From Candidatus Parcubacteria bacterium (GTDB lineage Bacteria; Patescibacteriota; Microgenomatia; UBA12405), in contig JAEZTF010000007.1 in NCBI GenBank assembly GCA_023443725.1, positions 103,846 to 167,845 of the forward strand: a stretch of 64,000 bases of DNA, given 5' to 3'. The translations under genes were made by a program, and so were the position numbers. Below are positions 12,011-51,085 of this stretch, one piece after another. Position 1 is the stretch's first letter. Each line of letters opens with the position of its first letter. The notes beneath the pieces were generated by a model. It had not been told where the DNA came from, did no database searches, and saw nothing but the letters and a program-made list of their open reading frames with translations.

Positions 12011-12529
12011 TTATTGTTTTTCGTATTGTTGCAATTCGTTGTATTTATATTCCAATTTTATCCCTACTTTTTTAAACATCTCTTCTGATTCAGCCCCAGC
12101 ATGATATTTTCTCTCACAAACAACTCTTTTTATTCCACAATTAATTAAAAGCATGGCACAAGTCCTGCACGGGGTCATCCGACAATATACTGTTGCCCCA
12201 TCAATCGAAACCCCTAATTTAGCTGCCTGACAAATAGCATTCTGCTCTGCATGAACTGTTCGTACACAATGTTCGGAAATTGACCCATCTTCATTAATCA
12301 TTTTTTTATATTGATGACCAACCTCATCACAATGAGGCAAACCTTTTGGTGAACCAACATATCCAGTTACCAAAATTTGTTTATTCTTCACAATTACACA
12401 TCCACTTCTACCTCGATCACAAGTGGCACGTTTAGAAATTGCTTCCATTACTTCCATAAAATAATCATCCCAACTCGGTCTGACATATTTAGATACATTT
12501 ACTGAACTTTTTTTATCTGTTTTTTTCAT
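12011..12529 (-). CDS. dCMP deaminase (ComEB-type cytidine/deoxycytidylate deaminase)
   Basis: Zinc motifs VHAEQNAI and PCRTCAMLLINCGIKRV. Confidence 0.8.
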   Translation of the reverse strand: MKKTDKKSSVNVSKYVRPSWDDYFMEVMEAISKRATCDRGRSGCVIVKNKQILVTGYVGSPKGLPHCDEVGHQYKKMINEDGSISEHCVRTVHAEQNAICQAAKLGVSIDGATVYCRMTPCRTCAMLLINCGIKRVVCERKYHAGAESEEMFKKVGIKLEYKYNELQQYEKQ

Positions 12530-13089
12530 TATTTATGATCAATAATTTGTAATATTTTTTCAATTTTTTCATTTAATTCTTCCAATGATCCATTATTATC
12601 AATTACAAAATCAGCTCTTTTAATACATTCACTTAGATTTTGTTTATTTGGATCAATTGAAACCATTTCTCTTTGTTCATCAGCTAAAAACTTTTCAAAA
12701 CTAACATTATCCGTTGATGTACCTCGTGTAGAAATTCTCATATATCTTATTTTAGGATCAGCATCTACAGCTAACAAAGTAAAATTACCTTTTTTTCTTA
12801 ATGTTTCAATTTCTCCAATAGTTCTCAAACTCTCAATTACAGTATTGTCTTCAGAATTTAAAGCCCTATTAAATAATTCTTCTGCAATAAACCCAGGACC
12901 AAATTTTTCTCTTAAATCATTAGCAACATTCACCATACTATCACGATTGTTTTCTAATCCTCTTTTTTTTATTTCTTCAATCAAAAAATCCCTAGCCGAA
13001 AAATGTTTAAAATTTTTATTTTTAACTAGATATTCAACTACGGTACCTTTCCCTGCTCCTAATGTTCCTGTAATACCAATTATTATCAT
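12529..13089 (-). CDS. P-loop nucleoside-monophosphate kinase-like protein (adenylate/cytidylate/dNMP kinase or CoaE-like)
   Basis: N-terminal Walker A IIGITGTLGAGKGT. Exact family not resolved. Confidence 0.45.
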   Translation of the reverse strand: MIIIGITGTLGAGKGTVVEYLVKNKNFKHFSARDFLIEEIKKRGLENNRDSMVNVANDLREKFGPGFIAEELFNRALNSEDNTVIESLRTIGEIETLRKKGNFTLLAVDADPKIRYMRISTRGTSTDNVSFEKFLADEQREMVSIDPNKQNLSECIKRADFVIDNNGSLEELNEKIEKILQIIDHK

Positions 13090-19070: not shown

Positions 19071-19952
19071 ATGAAAACTAAAAAACCATTAATTACTGTC
19101 TACATGCCAGTTTTTAATGCCGCCAAATTTTTAGACGAGTCAATTCAAAGTATTCTTAACCAAACTTTTTCTGATTTCGAGTTTATTATTATCGATGACG
19201 CTTCTACTGACAATTCTTGGAAAATTATTAAATCGTATGCTAAATCTGATAAACGTATTATTGCTATAAAAAATCATATCAATCTTGGAGTTAGTTTAAC
19301 CTCAAATATTGCTATATCCTACGCTCGCGGTAAATTTCTGGCTCGTATGGACGCTGATGATATCTCAGTTTCTAACCGTTTTGAAAAACAAATCAACTTT
19401 TTTAAAAAGCATTCTCAAGTTGTTGCTCTTGGTGGACAATGTTTTGTTATTGATGAAAATAATCAAAATATTGGAAACAAAAACTTCCCTACCAATTTCA
19501 AAAAATTATCCAAAATGATTTTTTGGGCAGTTCCAATTCAACAACCATCAATGATGGTAAATCTTAAATTATTACCTAAAAAATTCGTTTGGTATTCCCC
19601 CAACAAAACTTCTGCTGAAGAAATCGATTTAATGTTTCGATTCATGCTTTATGGACAAATCAATAATTTACCAGATTACTTGCTTTACTATAGACATTTA
19701 AATACCAGTTTGTCTCATCAAAATCCAAAAAAAACTTTCAACTTAACCATTAAAAGTCGACTAGGTGCTGTTAAGATGGGATTTAAACCAACTCTCCCTG
19801 CTATTTTATTAAACATTTGCCAAATTGTTGTTATTTCTATACTTCCAAATTCTGTGATAAATCAAATCTGGTCATTTGTTCGTGGTATTAATAAAACCCC
19901 AACATCTAAACTACAGTATAATTCTCTTAATGAAACTGTTATCAAGGCTTAA
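19071..19952 (+). CDS. family-2 glycosyltransferase (GT-A fold)
   Basis: ITVYMPVFNAAKFLDESIQSILNQTFSDFEFIIIDDASTDNS with a DDA/DxD motif. Confidence 0.8.
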   Translation: MKTKKPLITVYMPVFNAAKFLDESIQSILNQTFSDFEFIIIDDASTDNSWKIIKSYAKSDKRIIAIKNHINLGVSLTSNIAISYARGKFLARMDADDISVSNRFEKQINFFKKHSQVVALGGQCFVIDENNQNIGNKNFPTNFKKLSKMIFWAVPIQQPSMMVNLKLLPKKFVWYSPNKTSAEEIDLMFRFMLYGQINNLPDYLLYYRHLNTSLSHQNPKKTFNLTIKSRLGAVKMGFKPTLPAILLNICQIVVISILPNSVINQIWSFVRGINKTPTSKLQYNSLNETVIKA

Positions 19953-22425
19953 GCCATTTTTTGATATCATCGGTCTTTCGATTGTTCTAATAATAATTTT
20001 TATCGTCAATTTTAAAAATCAAACTTGGTTAATTGGTTGGGATAATCTCATACCGGAACTAAATATCGGCATGAATATCAAAAGATCTATTTTAGCCGTT
20101 TGGCAACAATATCAAGGTTTAGGTTTAATCGGAGGCATGGGTCATGCCTCTGATCTAATTCGACAAATTTTGATATTCCCCTTAACTCTATTTTTACCCA
20201 CTAATCTAGTTCGTTATTTGTGGCATTTTTTCTGTCTTAGTTTGGGTACTTTTGGTATTTATTTTGGTCTTAAAAATTATCTTAAATTCTCTAAAACAAT
20301 TTGTTTCTTATCGTCTCTTTTTTATCTTCTAAATTTTGGAACTATTCAAAATTTTTGGGTTCCCTTTGAGCCATTTTCTACTTTTTGGGGATTTTTTCCT
20401 TGGTTAATATTTAGTTTATTAAATTATCTCGATAAACCAAATCGACACAACTTAATCAAATTACTTTTAGTAAACCTACTAGCTATACCTAGCTTTTACG
20501 TTCCCACTATTTTTATCGTTTATTCATTGTGTTTATTTTGTATTTTAATTTCTAATTTAGTTGTTAATAAAAAAATTAATATTAAATCATTTTTAATGAT
20601 TTTATTAGTTAATTCTTTCTGGCTTCTACCATTTTTATATTTTGTCAAAAACGATATTTATAATCCTCAATTAGCTTTTGGAAACAAAATGGCTACAGAA
20701 GAAACTTTTTTAAGAAATCAAAATCGAGGTCATTTATCTGATTTTTTATTACTTCGAGGTTATTATTACGATCTCAATAGCAATGATTCATCTATAATGG
20801 ATATTTGGCGTCAACATTTTTCCTTCCCTATTTTAATTATTGGTTATTTAATCTCTTTAATTGTCTTTCTTGGATTAACAAAGGTAATAATTTCCTTCAA
20901 AGAAAATCGTTATTTTAAATTAGGAATAATATTAATATTTTTACTTACTGCAATTGCTCTTTTATCCAAAACCCTTCCTTTTCTATATGTCAATCAACTA
21001 TTACGAAATATACCAGTAATTAATCAAACTTTTCGTTCTCCTTTTACTAAATTCATAGTTCCCGGAATTTTTTCTTTCACTATTTTCCTATCATTTGGTC
21101 TTAAATTTATTCAAGAAATATTATTAAAACATAAAAAAATATTTTTATTTTTTTCGATAATCATATTTTCTTTTCTCATAACCTTCTCTTTTCCTGTTTT
21201 CACTGGTAATTTGTTCTATTTCAAAATGCGTCAACAAATTCCAAAAGAATATTTTGATTTAATTAATTATTTTAAAACTCAACCACAAGATGATCGTATT
21301 ATGAATCTCCCTTCTGGTGATTTCTGGGGTTGGACCAATTATCGTTTTGGTGTCAATGGTTCCGGGTTCATTTGGTATGGTATTCAGCAACCAATACTAG
21401 ACCGTGCTTTTGATGTTTGGAATCTAAAAAACGAAGTTTATTATCGAGAATTAAATTATTGTCTCCAAAAGAAAGATTCTAATTGCTTATCTCTATTAAT
21501 AGACAAATATGCTATTTCTCAAATTATGTTTGATAACAATGTTTATTTTCCAAATCAAAAAATATATTCTAAATTAGCTACACCCACAAAGGAACTATTA
21601 AAAAAAATTCCATCTCTAAAGAAAACTCAAGAATTCGGCAATATAACTATTTATCAAAAAAATCAGCATACTCAACCATATACTATTACTCAGCTAGAAA
21701 CGATTAATCTGATTCCACAACAAATAACCAATCCAAAATTGATTATTTCTGATTCAAATAAAATAATTTTCAACAACACTACTCCTAATAACCTTAAGTC
21801 AAAATACTATCCTAACATTACTTTTAATAAATCATATTTAATTAAAATTACATATAAAAATATATCTGGGTACCCTCTTGTCATTAGCGCAGTCAGTGAA
21901 AAATCAAATTTATTATTTTTTACTCAAAAATTATCTCAAAATAAGGATTGGCAAACTGATGAATTTATTATTCCTCAAATGACTGACGAATTTGGACAAG
22001 AGTTAACCATTATTTTTAATAATTCTAGTTTCAATAAATCAGCTTCAATTAATGAAATTAAAAATATCGAAATATATCAAATAGATCAAGAAGTACCTAC
22101 AATAATTACTAATAACAAAACTATACTTTCTTGTTCTTCTAATATTTTTATTTACAAAATAAATCCTATTAATAATTTACAAAATCAATATCTAATTCTT
22201 CCTCAATCTTTTCATAAGGGTTGGATCGCTTTTTATTTTGACCATTTTAAACCAATATTTTTATCAAATCATATTCTTTATAATAATTGGGCCAACGCTT
22301 GGGCCATTCCCTCTTCTTATAACCTATCATCAAAAATATATGTCCTCTTTTGGCCTCAAATTTTTGAATTTATTGGAATCGGATTAACTACTTTTGTATT
22401 ATTTCTAACACTTAAGAAAAAATAA
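19876..22425 (+). CDS. large polytopic membrane protein (12+ TM) with C-terminal extracytoplasmic domain, putative GT-C-type (YfhO/ArnT-like) glycosyltransferase
   Basis: 849-aa ORF with N-terminal 500 aa of hydrophobic helices and a C-terminal 300-aa soluble domain. Overlaps the GT2 gene, and the true start may be Met at about 19930. Family assignment is an inference. Confidence 0.45.
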   Translation: MFVVLIKPQHLNYSIILLMKLLSRLKPFFDIIGLSIVLIIIFIVNFKNQTWLIGWDNLIPELNIGMNIKRSILAVWQQYQGLGLIGGMGHASDLIRQILIFPLTLFLPTNLVRYLWHFFCLSLGTFGIYFGLKNYLKFSKTICFLSSLFYLLNFGTIQNFWVPFEPFSTFWGFFPWLIFSLLNYLDKPNRHNLIKLLLVNLLAIPSFYVPTIFIVYSLCLFCILISNLVVNKKINIKSFLMILLVNSFWLLPFLYFVKNDIYNPQLAFGNKMATEETFLRNQNRGHLSDFLLLRGYYYDLNSNDSSIMDIWRQHFSFPILIIGYLISLIVFLGLTKVIISFKENRYFKLGIILIFLLTAIALLSKTLPFLYVNQLLRNIPVINQTFRSPFTKFIVPGIFSFTIFLSFGLKFIQEILLKHKKIFLFFSIIIFSFLITFSFPVFTGNLFYFKMRQQIPKEYFDLINYFKTQPQDDRIMNLPSGDFWGWTNYRFGVNGSGFIWYGIQQPILDRAFDVWNLKNEVYYRELNYCLQKKDSNCLSLLIDKYAISQIMFDNNVYFPNQKIYSKLATPTKELLKKIPSLKKTQEFGNITIYQKNQHTQPYTITQLETINLIPQQITNPKLIISDSNKIIFNNTTPNNLKSKYYPNITFNKSYLIKITYKNISGYPLVISAVSEKSNLLFFTQKLSQNKDWQTDEFIIPQMTDEFGQELTIIFNNSSFNKSASINEIKNIEIYQIDQEVPTIITNNKTILSCSSNIFIYKINPINNLQNQYLILPQSFHKGWIAFYFDHFKPIFLSNHILYNNWANAWAIPSSYNLSSKIYVLFWPQIFEFIGIGLTTFVLFLTLKKK

Positions 22426-23566
22426 TTTTCGCTATTTTATTTCCTAATTCTTCAAATTCTTTTTCTTTCCAACCTTTAGTCGTCATCGCTGGAGTTCCAA
22501 TTCGAATTCCTGATGGTTTAAAAGGACCAGCTTTGTCGTGAGGAATTGTATTAGCATTACAAACTATTCCATTTTCTTCAAGTTTAACAGCTATTTCTTT
22601 TCCTCTTCCCTCGCCTACATCGACTACCATCAAATGATTTTCTGTCCCAAAAACTTTTAAACCATTTTTCTTTAAAGTTTCTGCTAAAACTTTGGCATTT
22701 TTAATTACTTGAAGAGAATAGTCTTTAAACTCTTGAGTGTCTGCTTCAGCAAAAGCCACTGCTAAAGCGGCAATATTATTTTCATGTGGACCACCTTGAA
22801 GCCCTGGGAAAACTGCTTTATCAATCTTTTCAATTAATTTATCATCTTTCTCTAATCCTTTCTTTGTAACCCCTATAAAGGCTCCTCGCGGACCTCTTAA
22901 ACTTTTGTGAGTTGTACTCATGATTAGATGAACATAATTTACTGGACTTGGATGAACTCCACCCACTATCAATCCAATAATATGTGACACATCAGCCACC
23001 AACCAGGCTCCAACTTTGTCTGCAATTTTGCCAAATTTTTCAAAATCCAAAATCCACGGATAAGCCGTCGTCCCTGCCATAATCATTTTTGGTTTCTCTT
23101 TTAAAACTAATTCTTCCAGCTTTTCATAATCAATTCGACCATCTTCTTCGACATCATATTGAACACTTTCAAAAAATTTACCTGAAAAAGTAATTTTTGG
23201 ATGTCCATGAGTTAAATGTCCTCCAGCCGACAATTTAAGCCCACAAATTTTATCCCCTCTTTCAAGAAGTGCCATTTGGATCGCGCTATTAGCTGGACTT
23301 CCAGAATAAGGCTGAACATTTAAATGCTCCACTCCTAAAAGTTTTTTACCCCTATTAATAGCCAAATTCTCAATTTCATCAATAAATTTATTTCCTTGAT
23401 AATACCTTCGACCAGGATAGCCTTCAGCATATTTATTGGTTAAACAACTTCCAATTGCCATCACCACTTCCTCTGAAGCAAAGTTTTCTGATGGAATTAA
23501 TGAAACGACTTCATCTTGTCGTTCTTCTTCTTTTTTAATTAAATCTCTTATTTGTTTATCGATCAT
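22412..23566 (-). CDS. glyA: serine hydroxymethyltransferase
   Basis: SLIPSENFASEEVVMAIGSCLTNKYAEGYPGRRYYQG and the PLP-binding region TTHKSLRGPRG. Confidence 0.9.
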   Translation of the reverse strand: MIDKQIRDLIKKEEERQDEVVSLIPSENFASEEVVMAIGSCLTNKYAEGYPGRRYYQGNKFIDEIENLAINRGKKLLGVEHLNVQPYSGSPANSAIQMALLERGDKICGLKLSAGGHLTHGHPKITFSGKFFESVQYDVEEDGRIDYEKLEELVLKEKPKMIMAGTTAYPWILDFEKFGKIADKVGAWLVADVSHIIGLIVGGVHPSPVNYVHLIMSTTHKSLRGPRGAFIGVTKKGLEKDDKLIEKIDKAVFPGLQGGPHENNIAALAVAFAEADTQEFKDYSLQVIKNAKVLAETLKKNGLKVFGTENHLMVVDVGEGRGKEIAVKLEENGIVCNANTIPHDKAGPFKPSGIRIGTPAMTTKGWKEKEFEELGNKIAKIIFS

Positions 23567-23629
23567 AATATATTTTCAAAATTAATAACTCAAAACCAGA
23601 CGACGTTTTCTTTATATCATAGTCCCATT

Positions 23630-24622
23630 TTACAATAATTTATTTTGTTGTTCCCATTTAAACAAATCTCCCAAAGATCTTTCTGTATGAACTCGTTTAA
23701 TAATTTTGGCCAAAAGTGGAGCTACTGAAATTATTGTCATCCCTTTAAATCGTTTATGTTTTGGAATTGGTACTGTATCCAAAAATATTACTTTATCTGC
23801 TGCACAGTTTTTTAGTCTTTCAACTGCTTCTCCATTTAAAAATCCATGAGTAGCTCCAATTATAATTTTTTTAGCTCCAAATTTTTTGACTGCTTCTACT
23901 GCCCCCACAATTGATCCACCACCGTCAACCATATCATCAATTAAAAGAGCAGTTTTATTTTTTACATCTCCTACTACATGAGCCGCTTCAGACATTCCAT
24001 GACCAGTCCTAACTTTATCTACAATCGCAATTTGAGTTCCCAAAAGATCAGCTACTTTATGGGTTTTTTTGGCTGCTCCAATATCAGGAGCCACTACTAT
24101 TAAATCTTTATATTTTTTCTTTTGCACATATTTTGCAATCAATGGATATCCCATTAAATGATCCACTGGAATATTGTAAAAACCCTGAATTTGAGAAGCA
24201 TGTAAATCAACAGTAATTAATCTTTCTACTCCAGCTACAGTAATTAAGTCAGCTACTAATTTGGCTGAAATTGGTTCATGTGATTCCACTTTTCGATCCT
24301 GACGTGAATAACATAAATTTGGACAGACAATGTTAATTCGACCAGCCGAAGATCTTTTTAAAGCATCAATAATAATCAATAATTCCATTAAACTATCATT
24401 TACATTATCTCCAAAAGTCTGAATTACGAAAATATCATCACCTCTTACTTTCTTCCCAATCCTTACATATATTTCACTATTTAAAAACTTTTTTATTACC
24501 ATTGGTGTCAATGGTAAATCCATCTTTTTAGAAATTTTTTCAGCTAATTCTGGGTGTGAACTTCCGGCTATTAACTGAATACCTTTCATAAGATTATTTT
24601 TCTCCTTTTTAATTCTAACCAA
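23630..24622 (-). CDS. prs: ribose-phosphate pyrophosphokinase
   Basis: DLHASQIQGFYNIPVDHL and the PRPP-binding loop. The start may be Met at 24589, which would abut the tmk stop. Confidence 0.9.
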   Translation of the reverse strand: MVRIKKEKNNLMKGIQLIAGSSHPELAEKISKKMDLPLTPMVIKKFLNSEIYVRIGKKVRGDDIFVIQTFGDNVNDSLMELLIIIDALKRSSAGRINIVCPNLCYSRQDRKVESHEPISAKLVADLITVAGVERLITVDLHASQIQGFYNIPVDHLMGYPLIAKYVQKKKYKDLIVVAPDIGAAKKTHKVADLLGTQIAIVDKVRTGHGMSEAAHVVGDVKNKTALLIDDMVDGGGSIVGAVEAVKKFGAKKIIIGATHGFLNGEAVERLKNCAADKVIFLDTVPIPKHKRFKGMTIISVAPLLAKIIKRVHTERSLGDLFKWEQQNKLL

Positions 24623-25272
24623 ATAATTTCATTAATTTCTTCCATGGGTAATAATTTACCATCTCTACAACAATCAATTATCAACCATCGATCAGGTTCT
24701 TTTTTCGCCATTTTTTCATATTCCTTAGCTGTTTCCATTTGATGATTAAAGTTTGATTCTGCCTGATCCATCGCCTCTTGACCAGTATAATTTCTTTTGG
24801 CTTTTTTTAAAATATTTTCTCGACAAATTTCTGGAGCTACCGACATAACCAGAATTAAATCTGGTTTGATAATTCCCATTTGATTGTATCCTGCTTCCCA
24901 TAGCCAATCAGCATATTTTTCTCTCTCATTTTCTGGTTGCTTGGCAATTTGATGAACATTTGATGTGAAATATCTATTGGAAACAACCATTTTCCCGATC
25001 TTTAAAGCTGGACCAATTATTTTTTTACTTCCATCTGCTTCATCAAGCATATATGGTAAAACTGCCAAATATGGACTAATTGTGAACAATTCTCCAAATT
25101 CACCCGTCAGTAATCGACCTACTTGTTTGCCCCAAAAACCAGTTTCATAATGAGGATAATCATCGGTCACCAAATCAACACCTTCTTTTTTTAATCTGTC
25201 CACCAACAATTCCGTTTGTGTTCCTTTTCCTGAACCATCAATTCCTTCAATAACTATAAATTTTCCTTTCAT
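24586..25272 (-). CDS. tmk: thymidylate kinase
   Basis: KFIVIEGIDGSGKGTQ P-loop and overall dTMP-kinase pattern. Confidence 0.85.
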   Translation of the reverse strand: MKGKFIVIEGIDGSGKGTQTELLVDRLKKEGVDLVTDDYPHYETGFWGKQVGRLLTGEFGELFTISPYLAVLPYMLDEADGSKKIIGPALKIGKMVVSNRYFTSNVHQIAKQPENEREKYADWLWEAGYNQMGIIKPDLILVMSVAPEICRENILKKAKRNYTGQEAMDQAESNFNHQMETAKEYEKMAKKEPDRWLIIDCCRDGKLLPMEEINEIIWLELKRRKIIL

Positions 25273-25994
25273 TTTTTTATTCTTGATTTTAATTCACAAC
25301 CTTTAATCGTTTTCCATAAACCACAGCTCATATTCCCTTCCCAGCAAATACCTTCAGAAATACAACTAGCTCCAGCATTTTCAAATATTTTTGGTGCCAC
25401 TTTTTTAACTTCAGCCAACATTAAATTAGATAATATTCTTATTTCCCATTGAGCTCTCAGACAACATCTTTCTCTAAAGAAATTTAATAAGGATCTAGCA
25501 TTCATTGTTACTACGATTTTTGTTTGACAAGCATTTGGCAATATAAATCTAGCATCTTCTGGTTTGACTCCATCTTTTATTAAACCTCGATACTCAGATT
25601 CAATTAAATCCATTGTTTTTTTATATTTTTCTAAAAGATTTTTATCTTTTTTTATTTCCGGTGGTACAACATAACCTAAATCACTTTTACTTAAATCAAC
25701 ATATCTTTGAGATTGTTGTGAAAAAGAAGCTATTCTATGACGAACCAATTGATGAGAACAAGCTCGACTAATTCCTTCTATTGCAAAGGTAAAAACAGCA
25801 TGTTCAATCGTCGATGTGTGACCAGATTCAACCACTTGATTAATCAATCTATTTCTCGTTTCTTCTGTAGTTTTTTCTTTTAATTCCTCTGCACCAACAG
25901 CACTGTAACATTGTCTAATTGCTGCTACTACATTTTGTTCAGGATTTAACGTATGACTCAAAAGTATTACCTTAATTTTTTCTTCTTTTGCCAT
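25269..25994 (-). CDS. thyX: flavin-dependent thymidylate synthase
   Basis: ThyX motif RHRIASFSQQSQRY (RHRxxxxxS). Confidence 0.85.
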   Translation of the reverse strand: MAKEEKIKVILLSHTLNPEQNVVAAIRQCYSAVGAEELKEKTTEETRNRLINQVVESGHTSTIEHAVFTFAIEGISRACSHQLVRHRIASFSQQSQRYVDLSKSDLGYVVPPEIKKDKNLLEKYKKTMDLIESEYRGLIKDGVKPEDARFILPNACQTKIVVTMNARSLLNFFRERCCLRAQWEIRILSNLMLAEVKKVAPKIFENAGASCISEGICWEGNMSCGLWKTIKGCELKSRIKK

Positions 25995-26141
25995 TTTTTT
26001 AATCTTTTTTAATTCTGACCAAATTTAAACTTAAATCAACCTAAAATCAATCGTAAAAACTATATCAAATCAACAAATTGTGTTTTTAAATTATTTGGTT
26101 ATAATAATTCAATTTGCCTATATTTTAATAATTTAAATTTT

Positions 26142-26861
26142 ATGGAAAGAACAACAGTATTTAGTTCTCGCATTATTGAAAATAGTTTATCTTATTTAAG
26201 AAACAAAGATACCGAGCTGCCTGATTTTAGAAAACATGCCGATATAATTTCCATTGGAGTTGGCTATCAATTAGCAGAAATTATTTTACCTCCACTTATA
26301 ACTCGTCAAATTGAAACTCCATTAATGGAAACATCAGCCAACTTTACTGATTCTAGTAAATTTCTTTTTGTGGCTATTCTTCGATCTGGATATCCACTCT
26401 GTCGAGGTATTCAAACATCTTTTCCTGATTCAAAACTAGCTCTTGTAGACATAAAACGAGACGAAAAAACTGCTAAACCTAAATTAAATTACAACGGTCT
26501 TCCAGCTGATCTTGATCAATATAAAATTATTATTCCCGATCCAATGTTAGCCACTGGAGGTTCTTTATCAATGGCTATAAGTGAACTTAAAATGAGAGGA
26601 GCTAAAGATATTACTGCTGGTTGTATAATTGCTGCTCCTGAAGGTATTAGCCGTATAAATGAAGATCATCCTGATGTTAATATTTTCACTTGTGCAATTG
26701 ATGAAGGTCTGAATAAAGTATTTTATATTTATCCAGGGTTAGGCGATTTTGGCGATCGTTATTATGGAAACACTAGTCCATCATTCTATGATGAAATTAA
26801 TCAAAGAACTTTAAAGTACCAACCTGATGGTACTTTTTACACCCTCCCCGGAAAAATTTGA
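26142..26861 (+). CDS. upp: uracil phosphoribosyltransferase
   Basis: IIIPDPMLATGGS and YPGLGDFGDRYYG motifs. Confidence 0.8.
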   Translation: MERTTVFSSRIIENSLSYLRNKDTELPDFRKHADIISIGVGYQLAEIILPPLITRQIETPLMETSANFTDSSKFLFVAILRSGYPLCRGIQTSFPDSKLALVDIKRDEKTAKPKLNYNGLPADLDQYKIIIPDPMLATGGSLSMAISELKMRGAKDITAGCIIAAPEGISRINEDHPDVNIFTCAIDEGLNKVFYIYPGLGDFGDRYYGNTSPSFYDEINQRTLKYQPDGTFYTLPGKI

Positions 26862-26901: not shown

Positions 26902-27852
26902 TCAATCTTTTGAATAGGTAATTTTTAGACCACATGATGGACAAACACTAGCCCCATCTTTTAATTCAGTACCACAAGGACAAAAACTTTTTCCATCTCT
27001 AATCTCCGGTTTTACTGATATTTCAGATTTAGAAAATAACTTATCAAAACTACTTTCTAATTGATCACTATTAAGACCACCATGGTTTCCTCCTTCTATT
27101 TGATAACCTCTCACTTTCATCATTCTTTCTAAAAATGCTCCAGTGTGAATTGAATTATTTTCAGTAAAACCACCAAATCTAACTTTTATATCTTCTAATG
27201 TTTCATTGATTACAGTTTCTATTTCTTTTTTTCTACAAATATCTTTGCCTTGTCTAACCACATTCCAAACTTCTTCAACACCAAAAACACTTTCACAAAA
27301 ATTCCATAATTCTTCTTCGTTCTTAATACCAAACTTTAAACCCAATGCTTGTTCTCTCAAATCCTCCACTTGTTTTATCTCTCCAACAGAATCACCTCCA
27401 AATTCAATTATCTTATTTGCCATTAACCACATTTCGTTTGGTTTATTAAAAAGTGGTATACCTCGACAATTAATTTTTATTTGGTTACTATCTTCAACAA
27501 TACCAACTACAATCCTACCGTCTTCATAATCACTTCTTCCTCCACTTGGACTTATCCAAAAAATATATTTACATCCACTCTTTGCCAATTTCCAAATATT
27601 CTTCATTCCCTCATATTCAGCTTTTCCAATTTCACTATTCAGTTCACAACGAAAATTTGGATTACCGTTAATATCAAAACTTAATTCGTAAGGATTAACT
27701 CTTTTTTCAATCTCTTCTACTCCATTTTCCAAAAAAACTCCAGCCAGTTCAGACAAATCTCCATGTTGTCTTTCTAAAGTAATTAAACGCTGTTCTTTTC
27801 CCATATTCTTCTGCTCGGAAGTTTCAGGCTCGGGCTTTAACCGTTGCGGCAC
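26902..27852 (-). CDS. hypothetical protein with C-terminal zinc ribbon
   Basis: 316 aa. C-terminus CPCGTELKDGASVCPSCG. No other recognisable domain. Confidence 0.4.
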   Translation of the reverse strand: MPQRLKPEPETSEQKNMGKEQRLITLERQHGDLSELAGVFLENGVEEIEKRVNPYELSFDINGNPNFRCELNSEIGKAEYEGMKNIWKLAKSGCKYIFWISPSGGRSDYEDGRIVVGIVEDSNQIKINCRGIPLFNKPNEMWLMANKIIEFGGDSVGEIKQVEDLREQALGLKFGIKNEEELWNFCESVFGVEEVWNVVRQGKDICRKKEIETVINETLEDIKVRFGGFTENNSIHTGAFLERMMKVRGYQIEGGNHGGLNSDQLESSFDKLFSKSEISVKPEIRDGKSFCPCGTELKDGASVCPSCGLKITYSKD

Positions 27853-27888
27853 AGCTTGGGAATTACACCCAATTCAAGAAAATTAAAT

Positions 27889-28341
27889 TTACTTCTCTTC
27901 AGCCCTCCTAGCCTTCAAAAACAAATAATCAGACAACCTATTAAAATATTCCAAAACTTTTTCATCTTGTTTTTCTTGATTATCCAAAGCTACTATTCTT
28001 CTCTCTAATCTTCTAGCTACAGTTCTTGCCCAATTTAAATTTAAAGCTTTTTTGTTTTTAAATCTTAAAAATTGTTTTAGCTCAGACAATTCTTTTTCTA
28101 ATTTGTCAATTTCTTTTTCTAAAAATAAAACTTTTTTACCAATATCAACTTCACTATTACATCCAATTTTACCCATTAATTGAAACAAATCATCAACTAT
28201 TAATTCTTCTCCTCCAATCAATTCTAATATTGATTGGAGTTCATCAATAGTACCCACAACTTCAACCAACAAAGAGTCTTTGGAAACTCTTTTGTTTCCA
28301 CAGATTGTTTGACCTTTATCTCCTTGTTTGGTTGTAATCAT
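27889..28341 (-). CDS. ATP:cob(I)alamin adenosyltransferase, PduO/MMAB type
   Basis: N-terminal TKQGDKGQT...SKDSLLVEVVGTIDELQS matches the PduO-family signature (T-GDxGxT ... RVEAxGT-DEL-S). Confidence 0.65.
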   Translation of the reverse strand: MITTKQGDKGQTICGNKRVSKDSLLVEVVGTIDELQSILELIGGEELIVDDLFQLMGKIGCNSEVDIGKKVLFLEKEIDKLEKELSELKQFLRFKNKKALNLNWARTVARRLERRIVALDNQEKQDEKVLEYFNRLSDYLFLKARRAEEK

Positions 28342-28347
28342 ATTTTT

Positions 28348-30789
28348 TTAACTACATTTAGAATAGCCACAAAAAACATTAGTACACTTAAAACAACCTT
28401 CTTCAGCTCGAAGTGGTGATCCACAATCAGGACAAGCTCCAAATTTACTTTCTGCCTGATTCATTTCTTCACTAATTTTAGAAACATCTATATGTGATAA
28501 TCCCTCTTCGTCTTTAAACATACTTAATTGTTCACCTTTAGAAATTTCCAGGACAGATTTTCCCACTGCATCAAACATACTCAATACAGCTCCATTTCCC
28601 ATCCCCACTTTTTGACCACAAGAAATTCCAATTAATTCGCCAGAGATTTCATCTAAAGTTGCTCCATATTTCAATGCTAAAGATGCCAATCTTCCAGTTA
28701 CCTCAGCCGATGCAGCTAAATAACCACCAGACTTACCTAAGTTTACAAACACTTCCACTGGACCATCACCTTCTTCATAAAAAATTGATGTATAAACACT
28801 ACCCACGTCACATTTTTTCTTTACTCTAATTCCACTAGCAACAATCGGGGTAGGTTTTTTCTTTGGTAAACAATTAATTTCTTTTTCTTCTGCTTTATTT
28901 TCCTTATCTTTAACTTTTTGTAATGGTTCAAAAGATCTTGATCCGCTTCTATAAATAGTTATTCCTTTGGTACCCAAAGAATAACTTAATCTGTAAGCAT
29001 CTCTGACATCATTTATTGTTGCGGTCTCTGGTAAATTAATTGTTTTTGAAACCGCATTATCTGTATATTCTTGAAAAGCAGCTTGAACTTTTATATGCCA
29101 TTCAGGATCAATTTCCAAAGCAGTAATAAAAATCTTTTTAAAATCCTCAGGAATTTCTTCTATATCTTTAAGCATTCCTCCATTCTTAACAATTTTTTCG
29201 ACCAATTCTTCAGAATAAATTCCTCTTTTCTTTAGTTCCTCTAATAATACTGGATTAACGCTATAAAGAGTTTTACCTTCAACCGTATTTTTTTGATAAC
29301 CCAGAGAAAATACTGGTTCAATTCCCGAACTAGTATCGGCAATCATACTAATTGTTCCAGTTGGTGCAATTGTGGTTAATGCCATATTTCGTGGTCGATA
29401 ATCAGTGTTTGCATAAACACTTTTTTCCCACCATGGAAAAACACCTCTTGTTTTAGCTAATTCTACTGTTGCCTCTTTAGCCGTCTCAGTAATAAACTTC
29501 ATTATTTTCTTTGCCCATTCCAAACCTTGATCAGAATTATATTGAACCCCCAATTTAAATAAAGCATCAGCAAATCCCATTATTCCCAGACCAATTCTTC
29601 GAGTATTGCTCACCATTTCTCTAATTTTTTGCACCGGAAATTGATTAATTTCTACTACATTGTCTAAAAAATGAACTCCAGCAAAAACTGCTTTTTTTAA
29701 TTCCTCCCAATCTAAATCTTTTTCTTTAACAAATTTTGCCAAATTTATTGAACCCAAATTACAAGCATCGTAAGGTAAAAGTGGTTGTTCCCCACAAGGA
29801 TTAGTTGCCTCAATTCTTCCCATAGCTGGTACTGGATTGGAACTTGGAGCATTCATTCGATCAATAAAAACTAATCCTGGATCACCATATTGCCAAGCCA
29901 AACGAGTCACCAAATTAAATACTTTATAAGCATTTAATTTCATTTTCACTTTTCCATCTCTTGGGTTTATTAATTCATAACCTTCACCCTTATCTTCTTG
30001 AGTAGCTATTGCCCAATCGTATAATTTTTTTACCCCAACTTCTATTTGTCTTAACCTCTCGTCTGCACTTCTAATCCCTTCAGCCAATCTAATTTCTTCA
30101 ACTACATCTTCCGGAATATTATCATTTTCCACAAACATTTTATCTTCATCAATTTTTTTCATGAAAGCATCGGTTACTGCCAAAGAAATATTGAAATTAG
30201 TCAAACTCCATTCATCTAATTTCACTACTGCAAATCTCAATACATCTGGATGATGAATGCTAAGCATTCCCATATTTGCCCCCCGTCGAACTCCACCTTG
30301 TTTTATTTGAGCTGTTACATCATTGTAAGCTTGCATAAAACTAACTGGTCCCACTGTAGTACCACCACTTGATTTAATATAGTCACCATAAGGTCGCAAT
30401 TTCGAAAAAGAAAAACCTGTTCCACCACCAGATTTGTGAATCATAGCCATATTTGACATAGTTTCCAATATTGATTCCATCGAATCTTCCACTGGCAATA
30501 CAAAACATGCCGAAAGTTGTTGTTTGGCTTTTCCTGCATTTACTAAACAAGGTGTGTTTGGCATAAATTTTTGCTCTGCCATTAAACCATAAAAACTCAA
30601 GGCTAATTCATTTGTTTGCTCCTCAGTTTTTCCAAAATTTATATCACCTTTAGCTACATTACTCGCCACCCGCCAAAAGATATCGGAAACTTTTTCATAA
30701 GCCTTCCCTTCTTCATCCTTTTGGGAATACCTAGTTTCTGCAATATATTTTGCATTTTCTGATAATTGTGGTTCGATTAAATCTCTCAT
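28348..30789 (-). CDS. nrdJ: adenosylcobalamin-dependent (class II) ribonucleotide reductase
   Basis: 813 aa. Class II NrdJ-like core including NPCGEQPLLPYDACNLGSINLAKF, plus a C-terminal zinc ribbon CPDCGS...CFKC. Confidence 0.9.
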   Translation of the reverse strand: MRDLIEPQLSENAKYIAETRYSQKDEEGKAYEKVSDIFWRVASNVAKGDINFGKTEEQTNELALSFYGLMAEQKFMPNTPCLVNAGKAKQQLSACFVLPVEDSMESILETMSNMAMIHKSGGGTGFSFSKLRPYGDYIKSSGGTTVGPVSFMQAYNDVTAQIKQGGVRRGANMGMLSIHHPDVLRFAVVKLDEWSLTNFNISLAVTDAFMKKIDEDKMFVENDNIPEDVVEEIRLAEGIRSADERLRQIEVGVKKLYDWAIATQEDKGEGYELINPRDGKVKMKLNAYKVFNLVTRLAWQYGDPGLVFIDRMNAPSSNPVPAMGRIEATNPCGEQPLLPYDACNLGSINLAKFVKEKDLDWEELKKAVFAGVHFLDNVVEINQFPVQKIREMVSNTRRIGLGIMGFADALFKLGVQYNSDQGLEWAKKIMKFITETAKEATVELAKTRGVFPWWEKSVYANTDYRPRNMALTTIAPTGTISMIADTSSGIEPVFSLGYQKNTVEGKTLYSVNPVLLEELKKRGIYSEELVEKIVKNGGMLKDIEEIPEDFKKIFITALEIDPEWHIKVQAAFQEYTDNAVSKTINLPETATINDVRDAYRLSYSLGTKGITIYRSGSRSFEPLQKVKDKENKAEEKEINCLPKKKPTPIVASGIRVKKKCDVGSVYTSIFYEEGDGPVEVFVNLGKSGGYLAASAEVTGRLASLALKYGATLDEISGELIGISCGQKVGMGNGAVLSMFDAVGKSVLEISKGEQLSMFKDEEGLSHIDVSKISEEMNQAESKFGACPDCGSPLRAEEGCFKCTNVFCGYSKCS

Positions 30790-31229
30790 TTTTTAAAATC
30801 AACTAATAATTTTTCAAAATCTTTTATAGATTCAATATCTAAATAAACTGTGGCAAATCTCACATATGCTAATGGGTCAACTTTTTTTAATTTTTCCATA
30901 ATCATTTTGCCAATTTCTTTAGAAGGAATTTCTACACTTTGCCAATTTAATAATTTCTTTTCAATCTCATCAACTATTTCTTCTCTTTCATCGACACTCA
31001 CTCGCCAACAAGCTTTTTCTAAACATTTTTCCAACTTAGCTCGGCTATAATCTTCTACTCTACCTGATTTTTTCAAAACTTTTAAATTAATATTTTCCAC
31101 TCTTTCATAAGTTGTAAATCTTTTTTTACAACTAATACACTCCCGTCGTCGTCTAGTTGCTTTTCCATCTTCAGCTTCTCGACTCTCCAAAACATTAGAC
31201 TCATCCTTACCACAATATGGACATAACAT
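30786..31229 (-). CDS. nrdR: transcriptional repressor NrdR
   Basis: MLCPYCGKDESNVLESRE zinc ribbon followed by an ATP-cone. Confidence 0.9.
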   Translation of the reverse strand: MLCPYCGKDESNVLESREAEDGKATRRRRECISCKKRFTTYERVENINLKVLKKSGRVEDYSRAKLEKCLEKACWRVSVDEREEIVDEIEKKLLNWQSVEIPSKEIGKMIMEKLKKVDPLAYVRFATVYLDIESIKDFEKLLVDFKK

Positions 31230-31274
31230 AATTTTTTTTGAAAAAATTCAGTAAATTTTAATTTTTAATACTAT

Positions 31275-31325
31275 CCACTATCTATAGTGGCTGTGTTTCA
31301 TCATACCCACCACCTATAGAACGGG
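31275..31325 (-). promoter_or_regulatory. tandem NrdR-box-like operator upstream of nrdR-nrdJ
   Basis: CCACTATCTATAGTGG (7-bp inverted arms) at 31275-31290 and a weaker CACCTATAGAACGGG-type site about 32 bp away centre to centre. Confidence 0.5.
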
Positions 31326-31416
31326 TCAATAATATAAACCATATCAAATTTTTTATCTGCAACAATTCCGCGGTGAAATTACTTTTATAAAGATATTTTT
31401 TAGTTTAAAATGAGTT

Positions 31417-32391
31417 ATGAGTGAAGGAACAACAGAACTTTGGCATATACCAACTCTTGATAATACAGAACCAAAAGACGATCGTCTTAAAATTAAAAAT
31501 AGTTTAAGAAAAGCTACCGATGAGGATCTTTGGCATGTGCCCACTTTTGCCAAAGACCCAGAAGTTCAAAATAATCCGGAAGTAAACAAGGATAACTCCT
31601 CTTTCGTTTGTGCTGCTACTTTAAATATTGAAGGTGATGAAGATGCCCCTCCAATCGCCAAAAAAATAACCGAATCTACTAGCCTTATTTTTGTTGCTGA
31701 TGGCATGGGTGGTTCCGGAGCCAGACGAATCGAAACTGGTAAAACTACAGCCTATTATGGTTCAAGAGCCGCTCGAGAAGGTATCTCTTCACTTTCAACA
31801 TCAGATTTTAATCAAGATTTATCATCTATCAAAAGGACAGTAGAAAGTTCTTTTGCCAGATCATTTTCATCTTTACCTAAAGTTCCAGAAAGTATTATTA
31901 AATCAAAATTAATAAAAGATTATCCTACAACCGTTTCCACCGCTGTCCTTACAGAAGAAAAAGATAGTAAATCAGTTAAACTATTATGGACAGGAGACTC
32001 TCCCATTTTTATTTTTACTCCAGAAGCAATTTATACTACCTCCACTCCTGAATCAGGAGATGCTCCAACATCTTCTATTTATCGTGATCATTATCATCTT
32101 GATTCACAGGAATTAACTTTCAAAAAAGACACTCCAATTATGGTTGTTGCTACTTCCGATGGCCTTTTAAAAATGGGAGGAGACACAATTGGTACTGCTA
32201 TTAGATTTATTTTAAGAAATACCAAAGACACTGATCCCTCAACGATCTCTCAACAAATGACTGATTATTATCAACAATTAAAAAGTCGACATCAAATAGA
32301 ATTAGACGACACTACTATCGCCCTGGCAACTTCAGGAGATATATCTAAATTACGAGCAGAAGTTCCTGTCAGACTTATTAATCCAAAATAA
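31417..32391 (+). CDS. PP2C-family (PPM) phosphatase-like protein with duplicated N-terminal LWH(I/V)PT motif (GC-richer)
   Basis: FVADGMGG, VVATSDGLLKMGG and C-terminal DDTTIALAT motifs resemble PP2C motifs 1, 8 and 11. Two N-terminal ELWHIPT/DLWHVPT repeats. Confidence 0.5.
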   Translation: MSEGTTELWHIPTLDNTEPKDDRLKIKNSLRKATDEDLWHVPTFAKDPEVQNNPEVNKDNSSFVCAATLNIEGDEDAPPIAKKITESTSLIFVADGMGGSGARRIETGKTTAYYGSRAAREGISSLSTSDFNQDLSSIKRTVESSFARSFSSLPKVPESIIKSKLIKDYPTTVSTAVLTEEKDSKSVKLLWTGDSPIFIFTPEAIYTTSTPESGDAPTSSIYRDHYHLDSQELTFKKDTPIMVVATSDGLLKMGGDTIGTAIRFILRNTKDTDPSTISQQMTDYYQQLKSRHQIELDDTTIALATSGDISKLRAEVPVRLINPK

Positions 32392-38272: not shown

Positions 38273-39610
38273 ATGGCATCACCAGAACAACCAACAATAG
38301 CACAGGAAAAAATTACTTCCGTTTTGATATCGCCTGGTGAAATGCCCCAAACCAGAGAAATAAATCAAAAACAAATTTCCGGAGAGTTAGTCACAATTAA
38401 ACAAGAATTTGATTCATGGTTACCAGAAGATCATTATGATGTTACTTTTTATCAAGCAATTACTATATGTTTTAACGGTAGTGAAACCTCCTATTTAGTT
38501 AGGGACCCCCACAAATTAAAACAGCTCAAAGACGATATTTTTCAAATTTTAGATGAAAAGAAATTAACGTTATCTAAATTAATTACATCAATTTTTGTGA
38601 CAAGTTATGATTATGACCTACTATCATTATTTGATAACGATCGGCATCTAAGAAAAAGTTTTTTAAAAGAAATTTTTGAAGAAAATAAAGGTCCTGAAAA
38701 TCATCAAAAAAGAAGAGAATTAGTCCTAAAAGCTATAGATAGTGGAGAAGCTTATCGTCACAAACCAACTAAAATAGAAACTCAAAAAACTGTCAAAAAG
38801 CCAAAAACCAACAATACAGAAACAAAAAAATCTACAAAAATAAAAACTCAGAATGTCACTAATGAACCAAAAAAAGAAACTAAACCAAAAATTATTCAAA
38901 ATAATCCAATTACATCAATTACAGAAAAGATACCGAGCATTGAAGTTTATTCAATAAGTGGTACTTTTTTTGAAGAATTAAAAAAAGTTCAAGTTTTAAA
39001 AAATGCATTTTCAAACGCAGCCATCTTCCCTGAAAAAATTTCATTAGAAAAAGCAATGAAACTAGTCCATCCAAAATACGCAGACACCGAAACAAAACCG
39101 TCATTCTTTAATCAAAAATACAAACAAGTTCTTGAATCTTGGCTTCAAGATAATTTACCCAAATATGGTCTTAGTAATATTGATGGTATAGATAAATCAT
39201 TTTTTATTTTTCTAAAAGCTAATCCCAAACTTGTTGATCTATTCAACCAAGGATCTCTAATTGGTCTTAATGAATCAAATCTAAAAGATATAATCGCCTT
39301 TTTCCCAGGTGAATATTATTATACGGTCCAAAAAACAATTTCGAGATCTTTAGCAGAGATTTTTCAAACAATTCATTATGATGACGAAACTATTCAAAGA
39401 ATATTAGAAGAATGTCATAAAAAAATAGGATATGAAGTTGATCCTGAAAATGAGATAAAAATACGAGAGCTTGTAAGAAAAACTTGCGCAAAAAATTTAC
39501 CTAATAATTTATACCAACCAGTAATACTAAAACAACCATCATTAAAAAAATTTCCACCAAATAAAAGATCATATAGCCCTCAAAATAAAAAAACTAAAGA
39601 ATCTCTATAA
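38273..39610 (+). CDS. hypothetical protein with K/T-rich low-complexity linker
   Basis: 445 aa with no recognisable motif. Central TKKSTKIKTQNVTNEPKKETKPK stretch. Confidence 0.35.
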   Translation: MASPEQPTIAQEKITSVLISPGEMPQTREINQKQISGELVTIKQEFDSWLPEDHYDVTFYQAITICFNGSETSYLVRDPHKLKQLKDDIFQILDEKKLTLSKLITSIFVTSYDYDLLSLFDNDRHLRKSFLKEIFEENKGPENHQKRRELVLKAIDSGEAYRHKPTKIETQKTVKKPKTNNTETKKSTKIKTQNVTNEPKKETKPKIIQNNPITSITEKIPSIEVYSISGTFFEELKKVQVLKNAFSNAAIFPEKISLEKAMKLVHPKYADTETKPSFFNQKYKQVLESWLQDNLPKYGLSNIDGIDKSFFIFLKANPKLVDLFNQGSLIGLNESNLKDIIAFFPGEYYYTVQKTISRSLAEIFQTIHYDDETIQRILEECHKKIGYEVDPENEIKIRELVRKTCAKNLPNNLYQPVILKQPSLKKFPPNKRSYSPQNKKTKESL

Positions 39611-46722: not shown

Positions 46723-47202
46723 CTATTTTTTATCTAAAAAATCCCCCCAACCAATTTTGGTAAACGTTTTTCGACATTCTTTTTCCAATACCCCACCAAC
46801 CACTTCCGGTTCTTTATCAAAAGGTGGATTGAATTTAGCCAAGCTCTTATCCTCCAAAATATTCCATTTGTTATGTCCGCCCATATTCGGTGATTTTACT
46901 CCATAAATTACTCTCTTAAAATGCAATTCTCTCATCATAAACGAACACATTGGACAAGGTTCACAATTTGAATATATTTCACAAGTCGATAAATCTTTTG
47001 TATTCAACTTCTTTTGAGCTTTTCTCATTACCATAATCTCAGCGTGACTAGTAATATCATGTTTTTTCTCATTAGCATTGGTTGAAGATACAATTATCTT
47101 CCCATCTCTTACAATTAAGCTTCCAAAAGGTGCCTCACCTTTTTTAATCGACATCTCTGCCAAAGCAATACATTTTTTAATAAAAAATTCATCTCTTTTC
47201 AT
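46723..47202 (-). CDS. CDA-fold nucleoside/tRNA adenosine deaminase (TadA/guanine deaminase-like)
   Basis: HAEIMVMRKA and CEPCPMCSFMM zinc motifs. Confidence 0.7.
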   Translation of the reverse strand: MKRDEFFIKKCIALAEMSIKKGEAPFGSLIVRDGKIIVSSTNANEKKHDITSHAEIMVMRKAQKKLNTKDLSTCEIYSNCEPCPMCSFMMRELHFKRVIYGVKSPNMGGHNKWNILEDKSLAKFNPPFDKEPEVVGGVLEKECRKTFTKIGWGDFLDKK

Positions 47203-50869: not shown

Positions 50870-51085
50870 TTAAGCATCACCTGGTACCGGATTACCTGTT
50901 GTTTGAGTATGATTAGTCGATCCTAAATTTCTATCAACGATAGCACCATCATCATTAGAATATCTTATTTCGCTCTTTACACGTTCAACTGGTAAATTAT
51001 AACAATCATCACCCAGCTCTGAACCATAATTTCCTTGAACTTTCTTTTCAGTAGCCTCAGAACCAATTTCTGGTATTCTCGTCAT
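50870..51085 (-). CDS. hypothetical small protein (71 aa), ATGA overlap with the ruvB stop
   Basis: Translationally coupled to ruvB and GC-richer. No recognised motif. May not be real. Confidence 0.3.

Follow-up and report, generated by a model that had tools for sequence, protein, structure and literature searches.

A cobalamin riboswitch and a gene of an uncharacterised zinc-ribbon family probably complete an nrdR-nrdJ-pduO operon in a bacterium of the Candidate Phyla Radiation

How do bacteria of the Candidate Phyla Radiation (CPR, Patescibacteria), which are abundant, rely on other organisms for much of their metabolism and have for the most part yet to be cultured, secure the vitamin B12 on which the synthesis of their DNA precursors may depend? 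No description of how they acquire and manage the vitamin for ribonucleotide reductase (RNR) was found in the searchable literature. The question is raised by a 64,000-nucleotide stretch of a Candidatus Parcubacteria genome (contig JAEZTF010000007.1, positions 103,846 to 167,845; hereafter the window; GC content ~31%), the minus strand of which carries a tightly packed trio of genes, nrdR, nrdJ and pduO, with a fourth gene downstream of pduO encoding a soluble protein of an uncharacterised family, here called ZR. A first-pass annotation had read the trio as a compact module made of a B12-dependent enzyme and the activator of its cofactor. The three genes are real, but the description was incomplete, as the unit appears to continue through a cobalamin riboswitch into ZR. 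We propose that nrdR, nrdJ, pduO, the riboswitch and ZR probably form a single four-gene unit, a NrdR-repressed module for B12 and deoxynucleoside triphosphate (dNTP) supply, the last gene of which is turned off by cobalamin. The three-gene part is routine annotation and, since nrdRJ operons are known from Streptomyces (PMC13584703) and an nrdJ-pduO association from Lactobacillus delbrueckii (PMC5997447), an ordinary one; the more informative part of the locus is the riboswitch with ZR, which lies just outside the coordinates covered by the annotation. The searchable literature yielded no description of an intra-operon class II cobalamin riboswitch associated with the ZR family.

In support of a single unit, one strong promoter precedes nrdR, no terminator was predicted on the minus strand between positions 31300 and 26836, and the first one predicted lies after ZR (Table 1). 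With no terminator predicted between the promoter and that point, the riboswitch is internal to the operon. The genes themselves leave little room between them: the nrdR stop and nrdJ start share an ATGA overlap, nrdJ and pduO are separated by 6 nt, and the riboswitch aptamer overlaps the last pduO codons and the stop codon at its 5′ end, while its 3′ end falls 13 nt before the ATG of ZR at position 27804.

Table 1. Coordinates of the operon, its predicted control elements and its nucleotide-supply neighbours (positions of the window).
Feature	Position	Strand	Basis or remark
-35 hexamer TTGACC	31324..31329	minus	part of best promoter match
Distal (upstream) NrdR box GTTCTATAGGTGGTGG	31307..31322	minus	between -35 and -10
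-10 hexamer TATGAT	31300..31305	minus	part of best promoter match
Proximal NrdR box CCACTATAGATAGTGG	31275..31290	minus	14/16 positions palindromic
nrdR, ATP-cone transcriptional repressor, 147 aa	30786..31229	minus	profile matches
nrdJ, predicted class II adenosylcobalamin-dependent RNR, 813 aa	28348..30789	minus	TSCPD domain, C-terminal Cys-rich zinc finger
pduO, short PduO-type ATP:cob(I)alamin adenosyltransferase, 150 aa	27889..28341	minus	profile and PDB matches
Cobalamin riboswitch aptamer, class II (RF01689, AdoCbl-II)	27818..27895	minus	Rfam
P13 hairpin CUUC-CGAGCA-GAAG	27808..27821	minus	L13 loop and Shine-Dalgarno-like 3′ strand, 3 nt (AAU) before ZR AUG
ZR, soluble protein of an uncharacterised family, 300 aa	26902..27804	minus	homologue N-termini, riboswitch position, public gene calls
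Terminator-like hairpin and T-run	26813..26836	minus	first predicted on the strand after the promoter
Nucleotide-supply neighbours	22412..26861, 12011..13089, 46723..47202, 53174..53800		

The riboswitch was identified by Rfam as a full-length match to RF01689 (model positions 1-81; 40.6 bits against a gathering threshold of 36.5) and is the sole non-tRNA Rfam match in the window. Its likely expression platform, the P13 hairpin, occurs in 25 of 25 loci, 0-7 nt ahead of the ZR start codon, and its stem has undergone compensatory changes, the closing pair being C-G in 7, U-A in 11, A-U in 6 and G·U in 1 (four types), and the second pair U-A in 16, C-G in 6 and U·G in 3 (three types), around a loop of consensus CG(A/U)GC(A/C). 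The last base of this loop, position 6 of L13, covaries with L5, pairing as U-A in 21/21 loci and as G-C in 3/4; the proposed L5-L13 pairing leaves one loop purine unpaired. Compensatory changes in the aptamer helices P4 and P6 were detected with RNAalifold on a MAFFT alignment. These were the only two helices recovered in this way, the register of P13 having been lost because of loop-length variation, and the pairs of P13 and of the kissing loop were counted by script instead. The single-sequence minimum free energy fold of the leader was uninformative (z = 0.04).

What such a leader may do can be read from env8HyCbl, a riboswitch of the same Rfam family in which bound cobalamin stabilises the docking of L5 to L13 and sequesters the ribosome-binding site (RBS) in L13/P13, switching expression off; this RNA favours hydroxo- and methyl-cobalamin over adenosylcobalamin (AdoCbl) (PMC5028336). 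Like env8HyCbl, the window RNA combines a compact aptamer lacking the P6 extension with an L5-L13 kissing loop and a P13 that holds the RBS just before the start codon, an arrangement which, by analogy, would repress translation (PMC5028336). As predicted from these features, L5-L13 and P13 of the window are a kissing loop and expression platform of the env8HyCbl type. Unlike env8HyCbl, the window riboswitch lies within an operon and begins in the stop region of the preceding gene, its J1/13 linker is absent or overlapping, and other lineages have leaders of the RF00174 type before their orthologous ZR genes.

The association of the riboswitch with ZR is not peculiar to the window. Among the loci of relatives (designated L001 to L035), a cobalamin riboswitch leader precedes ZR in every locus examined (>25), those far from nrdJ included. 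An RF01689 or RF00174 match at or above the gathering threshold is found directly 5′ of the gene in 12 distinct loci (the window, L001, L005, L014, L016, L021, L023, L024, L026, L027, L029 and L030), a sub-threshold match occupies the identical position in nine (L004, L009, L011, L012, L018, L019, L020, L022 and L025), and the hallmark motifs and P13 were recognised by inspection in the remainder (L028 and L031-L035). This linkage extends to ZR members that are just 22-25% identical to the window protein. The order pduO-riboswitch-ZR, usually followed by thyX-tmk-prs-glyA, recurs in at least 15 distinct loci, down to 37% ZR identity, and the whole arrangement nrdR-nrdJ-pduO-ZR-thyX-tmk-prs-glyA is preserved in L009, L011, L014 and L020. 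The thyX-tmk-prs-glyA segment also follows the ZR slot in L001, as it does in L009, L014 and L020.

Two kinds of loci stand apart from the rest. In L001 (8917..9940), NrdR shares 97% identity with its counterpart in the window and NrdJ 93% (93-97% for NrdR, NrdJ, Prs and GlyA), PduO shares just 77%, and the gene controlled by the riboswitch has diverged so far that the family hidden Markov model (HMM) alone recognises it: BLASTP found no match between ZR and this 312-aa open reading frame (ORF), which the HMM joined to the family with p = 3e-10. Set against its near-identical neighbours, the divergent protein in the ZR slot indicates that the riboswitch-controlled gene diverges, or is replaced, far faster than the rest of the locus. 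In the sister lineages represented by L002 (9074..9974) and L003 (9479..10469), the slot after pduO holds no ZR and is occupied by a secreted DUF4430 protein and a multi-pass DUF6580 membrane protein, before the genes of which no riboswitch was detected. Transcobalamin-type B12 binders have DUF4430 as their C-terminal domain (PMC4350170), and it is plausible that this pair is a system for the capture and uptake of corrinoids. The occupants of the slot in these lineages point to a role of the slot in B12 acquisition. A search of the literature for DUF6580, and for CPR bacteria in connection with adenosyltransferases, RNR or cobalamin riboswitches, returned nothing relevant. The most distant ZR members (L033 and L034, 1..7100) stand beside genes resembling those of type IV secretion systems (T4SS) and conjugation (a VirB4/TraG-like ATPase, a PrgI-like protein and an M23 peptidase); an unannotated protein of ~580 aa is encoded after each of them, and each lies behind a cobalamin riboswitch leader.

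The ZR protein consists of an N-terminal alpha/beta domain, a helical domain and a C-terminal zinc ribbon with four cysteines. While a word-indexed search retrieved only 15 relatives, all unannotated, an exhaustive profile search yielded 277 cluster representatives, nearly all of ~300 aa and matched from end to end; a further family search with a broader alignment added three distant members and no more. Residues E26, R35, E63, S85, P86, Y93, R97, R150, W180, E226, G233 and G242 and the four cysteines are near-invariant. When the ZR profile was compared to Pfam, NCBIfam and the sequences of the PDB, the zinc ribbon was the only part to find a match, and no solved fold was matched. A longer form of ZR starting at a GTG (position 27852; 316 aa) was considered and rejected: this codon lies inside the aptamer, the homologues start at the equivalent of the ATG at 27804, and public gene calls give the 300-aa form only. 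The ZR frame is nevertheless extended into the riboswitch both by this GTG, which gives the frame its longest ORF in the window, and by the public call in L034 (~5960..6060). Gene calls extended in this way would mask the leader RNA in annotations.

Upstream of the operon, the first-pass annotation had noted a near-perfect NrdR box with a degenerate second one about 32 bp away, and this pair withstood scrutiny. Published NrdR operators consist of two partly palindromic 16-bp boxes with a 15-16 bp linker (PMC13584703, PMC9110341), in which positions C4, A6, A8, T9, T11 and G13 are conserved and C4 and G13 critical (PMC13584703). The boxes of the window lie 32 bp apart, centre to centre, with a linker of 16 bp that fits the published operator (PMC13584703); both have C4, A6, A8, T11 and G13, and T9 is replaced by G, so that five of the six highly conserved positions are kept. 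The resulting AG dinucleotide in the middle is found in the functional box 2 of Escherichia coli nrdAB, too (PMC13584703). On the plus strand, the proximal box reads CCACTATCTATAGTGG. It is the sole full match in the window at three mismatches or fewer, the chance expectation being 0.14, and 0 of 100 shuffles gave 3. A box-like pair at ~51060..51107 was judged to be due to chance, as it lies in coding sequence without palindromic flanks, and a match with three mismatches at 38730..38745 is a lone half-site within an ORF.

The boxes are embedded in the promoter. The sigma-70-like TTGACC-18-TATGAT is the best promoter match on the minus strand between 26700 and 31500 (10/12 positions, 18-nt spacer), and the region reads, in coding-strand order, TTGACC(-35)-c-GTTCTATAGGTGGTGG-g-TATGAT(-10)-gaaacacag-CCACTATAGATAGTGG, with 45 nt from the end of the proximal box to the ATG of nrdR. 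Of the two boxes, the distal one takes up the interval from the -35 to the -10 hexamer, and the proximal one comes after the -10. The sequence TTGAC is kept in L001 and L004-L006, and the -10 of relatives is TATGAT, TATTAT or TATAGT. In all 12 CPR loci with upstream sequence, the pair of boxes is found upstream of nrdR at the same place, with a linker of 16 bp and each box retaining C4 and G13, compared to four chance pairs of equal score in ~335 kb. With boxes over the -35/-10 spacer and the start region, repression of the operon by its own first gene product, which had been suggested for the whole operon, is a sound inference from the predicted operator. The promoter region is shared with a PP2C-like phosphatase gene (31417..32391, plus strand), which is divergent from nrdR across a common 187-bp intergenic region containing the boxes; the same arrangement occurs in L001, and secE-nusG-rplK-rplA stand there instead in other relatives. 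A bacterial-type NrdR box, ACACAACATATAGTGG, is also found upstream of nrdR-nrdJ on contigs of Nanohaloarchaeota (DPANN archaea; L007 and L008).

The assignments of the three upstream genes, made at first from their reading frames, all scored above curated profile cut-offs. NrdR matched TIGR00244 with 158.3 bits (cut-off 124.65), PF22811 (Zn_ribbon_NrdR) with 70.3 bits and PF03477 (ATP-cone) with 60.2 bits. NrdJ matched TIGR02504 with 678 bits (cut-off 400) and NF006417 with 963.5 (cut-off 961), and comprises the Pfam domains Ribonuc_red_lgN, Ribonuc_red_lgC and TSCPD. Its best PDB match is Thermotoga maritima NrdJ (1XJE, E = 7e-117), to which the catalytic and redox motifs SACFVLP, NPCGE and ACNLGS align, so that the catalytic Cys, Asn and Glu residues and the redox cysteines are kept, and its Cys-rich C-terminal tail, noted before as a zinc ribbon, recalls the zinc finger known from most class II RNRs (PMC5704485). 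By profile and motifs, NrdJ is thus predicted to be a class II, AdoCbl-dependent RNR; it differs from the T. maritima enzyme in its 813 aa, its TSCPD insert region and its NF006417-type subgroup. Consistent with the annotation's view of NrdJ as the only RNR, a Pfam scan of 63 further ORFs in the 64-kb window revealed no other RNR subunit (NrdB/F or NrdD/G), and hence no class I or III enzyme. The scan revealed no cob/cbi gene and no cobalamin pathway either, nor was any BtuFCD, ECF (energy-coupling factor), DUF4430 or DUF6580 gene present, leaving the cluster without an importer. The nearest relatives of NrdJ and PduO come from metagenome-assembled genomes of CPR/Patescibacteria, several of which are labelled Candidatus Shapirobacteria, a kinship which fits a reduced, corrinoid-scavenging lifestyle; the scavenging that the annotation had proposed agrees with the lack of cob/cbi genes, as far as the 64 kb reach. 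Records titled 'uncultured Gammaproteobacteria bacterium' or 'Bacteriovorax sp.' (L001, L002 and L006) hold CPR-like loci with NrdJ proteins 81-93% identical to that of the window, probably through mis-binning or mislabelling. The Nanohaloarchaeota contigs (L007, 4560..7912; L008, 5365..8718) encode nrdR-nrdJ with a NrdJ 38% identical to that of the window and no adjacent pduO.

The 150-aa product of the third gene, taken from the start for a PduO-type enzyme, matched PF01923 (Cob_adeno_trans) with 125.8 bits (cut-off 24) and, in the PDB, Bacillus subtilis YvqK (1RTY, E = 1.4e-21). The N-terminal ATP motif TKQGDKGQT (TKxGDKGxT), ARTVARRLERR and the C-terminal NRLSDYLF align to YvqK and PH0671. 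With YvqK, L. reuteri PduO (3CI1) and human MMAB (PMC8633584), the protein has in common the Cob_adeno_trans domain, the N-terminal ATP motif and the C-terminal helix motifs; unlike them, it is a minimal form without a C-terminal extension, and its genetic link is with NrdJ, not with diol dehydratase or methylmalonyl-CoA mutase. pduO lies 3′ of nrdJ in five of the five CPR loci with downstream sequence (L001-L005). The sole break seen in this junction is a 181-aa ORF between the two genes in one Shapirobacteria locus (L005, 3130..3675).

Two known systems resemble parts of this operon. In Streptomyces coelicolor, nrdR stands directly 5′ of a class II nrdJ with which it is co-transcribed, behind two 16-bp promoter boxes with a 15-16 bp linker that imply autorepression (PMC9110341, PMC13584703), as in the window; in contrast to S. 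coelicolor, the window operon runs on into pduO, the riboswitch and ZR, the middle of its boxes is AG rather than AT, and its host is a low-GC CPR bacterium. The B12 auxotroph L. delbrueckii has an nrdJ-cbrS-cbrT-pduO cluster (Rodionov 2009; Santos 2018, PMC5997447) which, like that of the window, places NrdJ beside PduO, such that scavenged cobalamin would be adenosylated for NrdJ. That cluster includes the ECF S-component CbrT, an importer, and lacks nrdR, whereas the window has nrdR, no importer, and an orphan gene controlled by a riboswitch.

A mechanism for the four-gene unit can be proposed along these lines. NrdR, loaded according to the ATP/dATP pool, would bind both boxes and repress all four genes, including its own. 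PduO would adenosylate scavenged corrinoid for NrdJ, the only RNR seen in the window, and may, by analogy with PduO/MMAB enzymes, hand AdoCbl over to NrdJ or repair its cofactor (PMC8633584). When cobalamin is ample, the docking of L5 to L13 would be stabilised as in env8HyCbl and the RBS hidden in P13, at which point the translation of ZR would stop, and ZR would be made only when B12 is scarce. Its role may then lie in the acquisition or handling of B12, for example if it captures corrinoid, removes its ligand or reduces it before PduO acts. Our leading guess, if a tentative one, is that ZR handles B12 in the cytoplasm at a step before PduO.

Several points weigh against this proposal, and two of them lend themselves to rival explanations. 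Compared with characterised enzymes, the window PduO is ~20-40 residues short, and the PGG is missing from its F-x-L-P-G-G stretch, which we take, from work on L. reuteri PduO, to lie near the corrin site; here the Phe is kept in the sequence FLRFKNKK, and L002, L004 and L005 keep P-G. Together with a TIGR00636 score barely over the cut-off (114.9 against 108.45), this could mean that the protein is catalytically inactive and serves as a cofactor chaperone only, or in some other function, but the three motifs aligned to YvqK are all intact, the short form is conserved in ~100 CPR homologues, and archaeal family members of 172-177 aa are among the solved structures, so that we hold an inactive PduO to be improbable. 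As regards the riboswitch, the 3′ strand of P1 as placed by Rfam overlaps the 5′ strand of P13 in the window, and the direction of regulation consequently rests on analogy. GAAG(U) at the pduO stop (27891..27895) and the 3′ strand of P13 (GAAG, 27808..27811) are both complementary to ACUUC (27818..27822), which makes the outer aptamer helix and P13 mutually exclusive in the window and may represent an anti-sequestor arrangement. Were P1 (GAAGU/ACUUC) stabilised by the ligand, it would take CUUC from P13, free the Shine-Dalgarno-like GAAG and activate ZR on cobalamin. Activating corrinoid riboswitches do exist (PMC10327014), and the two strands are identical nucleotides in L001 and L016 as well. 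We nonetheless consider activation to have only a slim chance of being correct: in the loci with the best-scoring aptamers (e.g., L023), P13 is independent, P1/P3 forms a helix of its own and the linker is short, which is the layout of the repressing env8HyCbl (PMC5028336), and the covariation of L5 with L13 implies that P13 must form in the ligand-docked state. Further points bear on ZR and on the unit as a whole. Being cytoplasmic, ZR cannot itself be the importer; since no riboswitch precedes the putative uptake genes of L002 and L003, the argument that the same slot means the same role is weak; the lack of cob genes, importers and other RNRs holds for 64 kb only; and NrdR binding, ligand binding, adenosyltransferase activity and the function of ZR are all predictions from sequence.

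Of the remaining rivals, one concerns what ZR does. ZR might provide a B12-independent bypass for dNTP supply, salvaging deoxynucleoside monophosphates or deoxynucleosides (e.g., from imported DNA or deoxynucleotides) while NrdJ is idle and being turned off when B12 returns. Such a bypass would have its parallels in B12 regulons, in the pairs metE/metH and nrdAB/nrdJ, and it fits what Rodionov reportedly described in 2003, namely that the classical targets of repression by B12 riboswitches include B12-independent isozymes along with uptake genes. ZR is always found in nucleotide-salvage surroundings (thyX, tmk, prs, glyA, upp, deaminases), its distant members adjoin the T4SS- and DNA-transfer-like genes, zinc ribbons are common among nucleic-acid-binding proteins, and charged residues predominate among the near-invariant ones (E26, E63, R97, R150, E226), as expected of an enzyme. 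On the other hand, ZR resembles no nuclease, kinase, phosphorylase or deoxyribosyltransferase, its direct upstream partner is mostly pduO and not a salvage enzyme, and the proteins that take its place in L002 and L003 resemble B12 binders or transporters; we regard the bypass as rather unlikely, though deserving of more weight than an inactive PduO or an activating riboswitch. Another rival would confine the functional module to the first three genes and make of the riboswitch and ZR an unrelated neighbouring unit, in keeping with the promoter-like sequences that distant ZR members (L029, L030 and L033-L035) have of their own, away from nrdJ and pduO, and with the want of any ZR in L002 and L003. 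The repetition of the pduO-riboswitch-ZR order across loci of such divergence, the start of the aptamer in the last pduO codons with neither terminator nor promoter between, and the concern of both units with one and the same cofactor make this very doubtful and speak for the four-gene unit.

Around the operon, the window is rich in genes of nucleotide supply, including upp, thyX, tmk, prs, glyA, two cytidine/dCMP deaminases, a small nucleotide kinase and a phosphoribosyltransferase. Two MreB paralogues (1764..2849 and 57124..58125) lie elsewhere in the window, and an 849-aa ORF (19876..22425) is without a Pfam match, as are several other ORFs.

The locus offers a compact genetic handle on the B12 economy of CPR bacteria, with a nucleotide-sensing repressor, a B12 enzyme, a B12 activator and a B12-sensing RNA brought together in one operon. 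The family of ZR, with its 277 clusters, is marked as part of B12 physiology by being universally under the riboswitch. ZR could conceivably be the founder of a new class of cobalamin-economy proteins in these ultra-small bacteria, acting either as a cytoplasmic factor in the processing or trafficking of corrinoids, for example a de-ligase, reductase or chaperone supplying PduO and, after it, NrdJ, or in a B12-independent route to deoxynucleotides, a possibility we hold about as tentatively as our guess at its handling role. If either role proved true, the intra-operon riboswitch would tie the supply of DNA precursors directly to environmental B12. A function for ZR would fill a gap in the B12 regulon and could explain a B12-linked dependence of CPR bacteria on their hosts.

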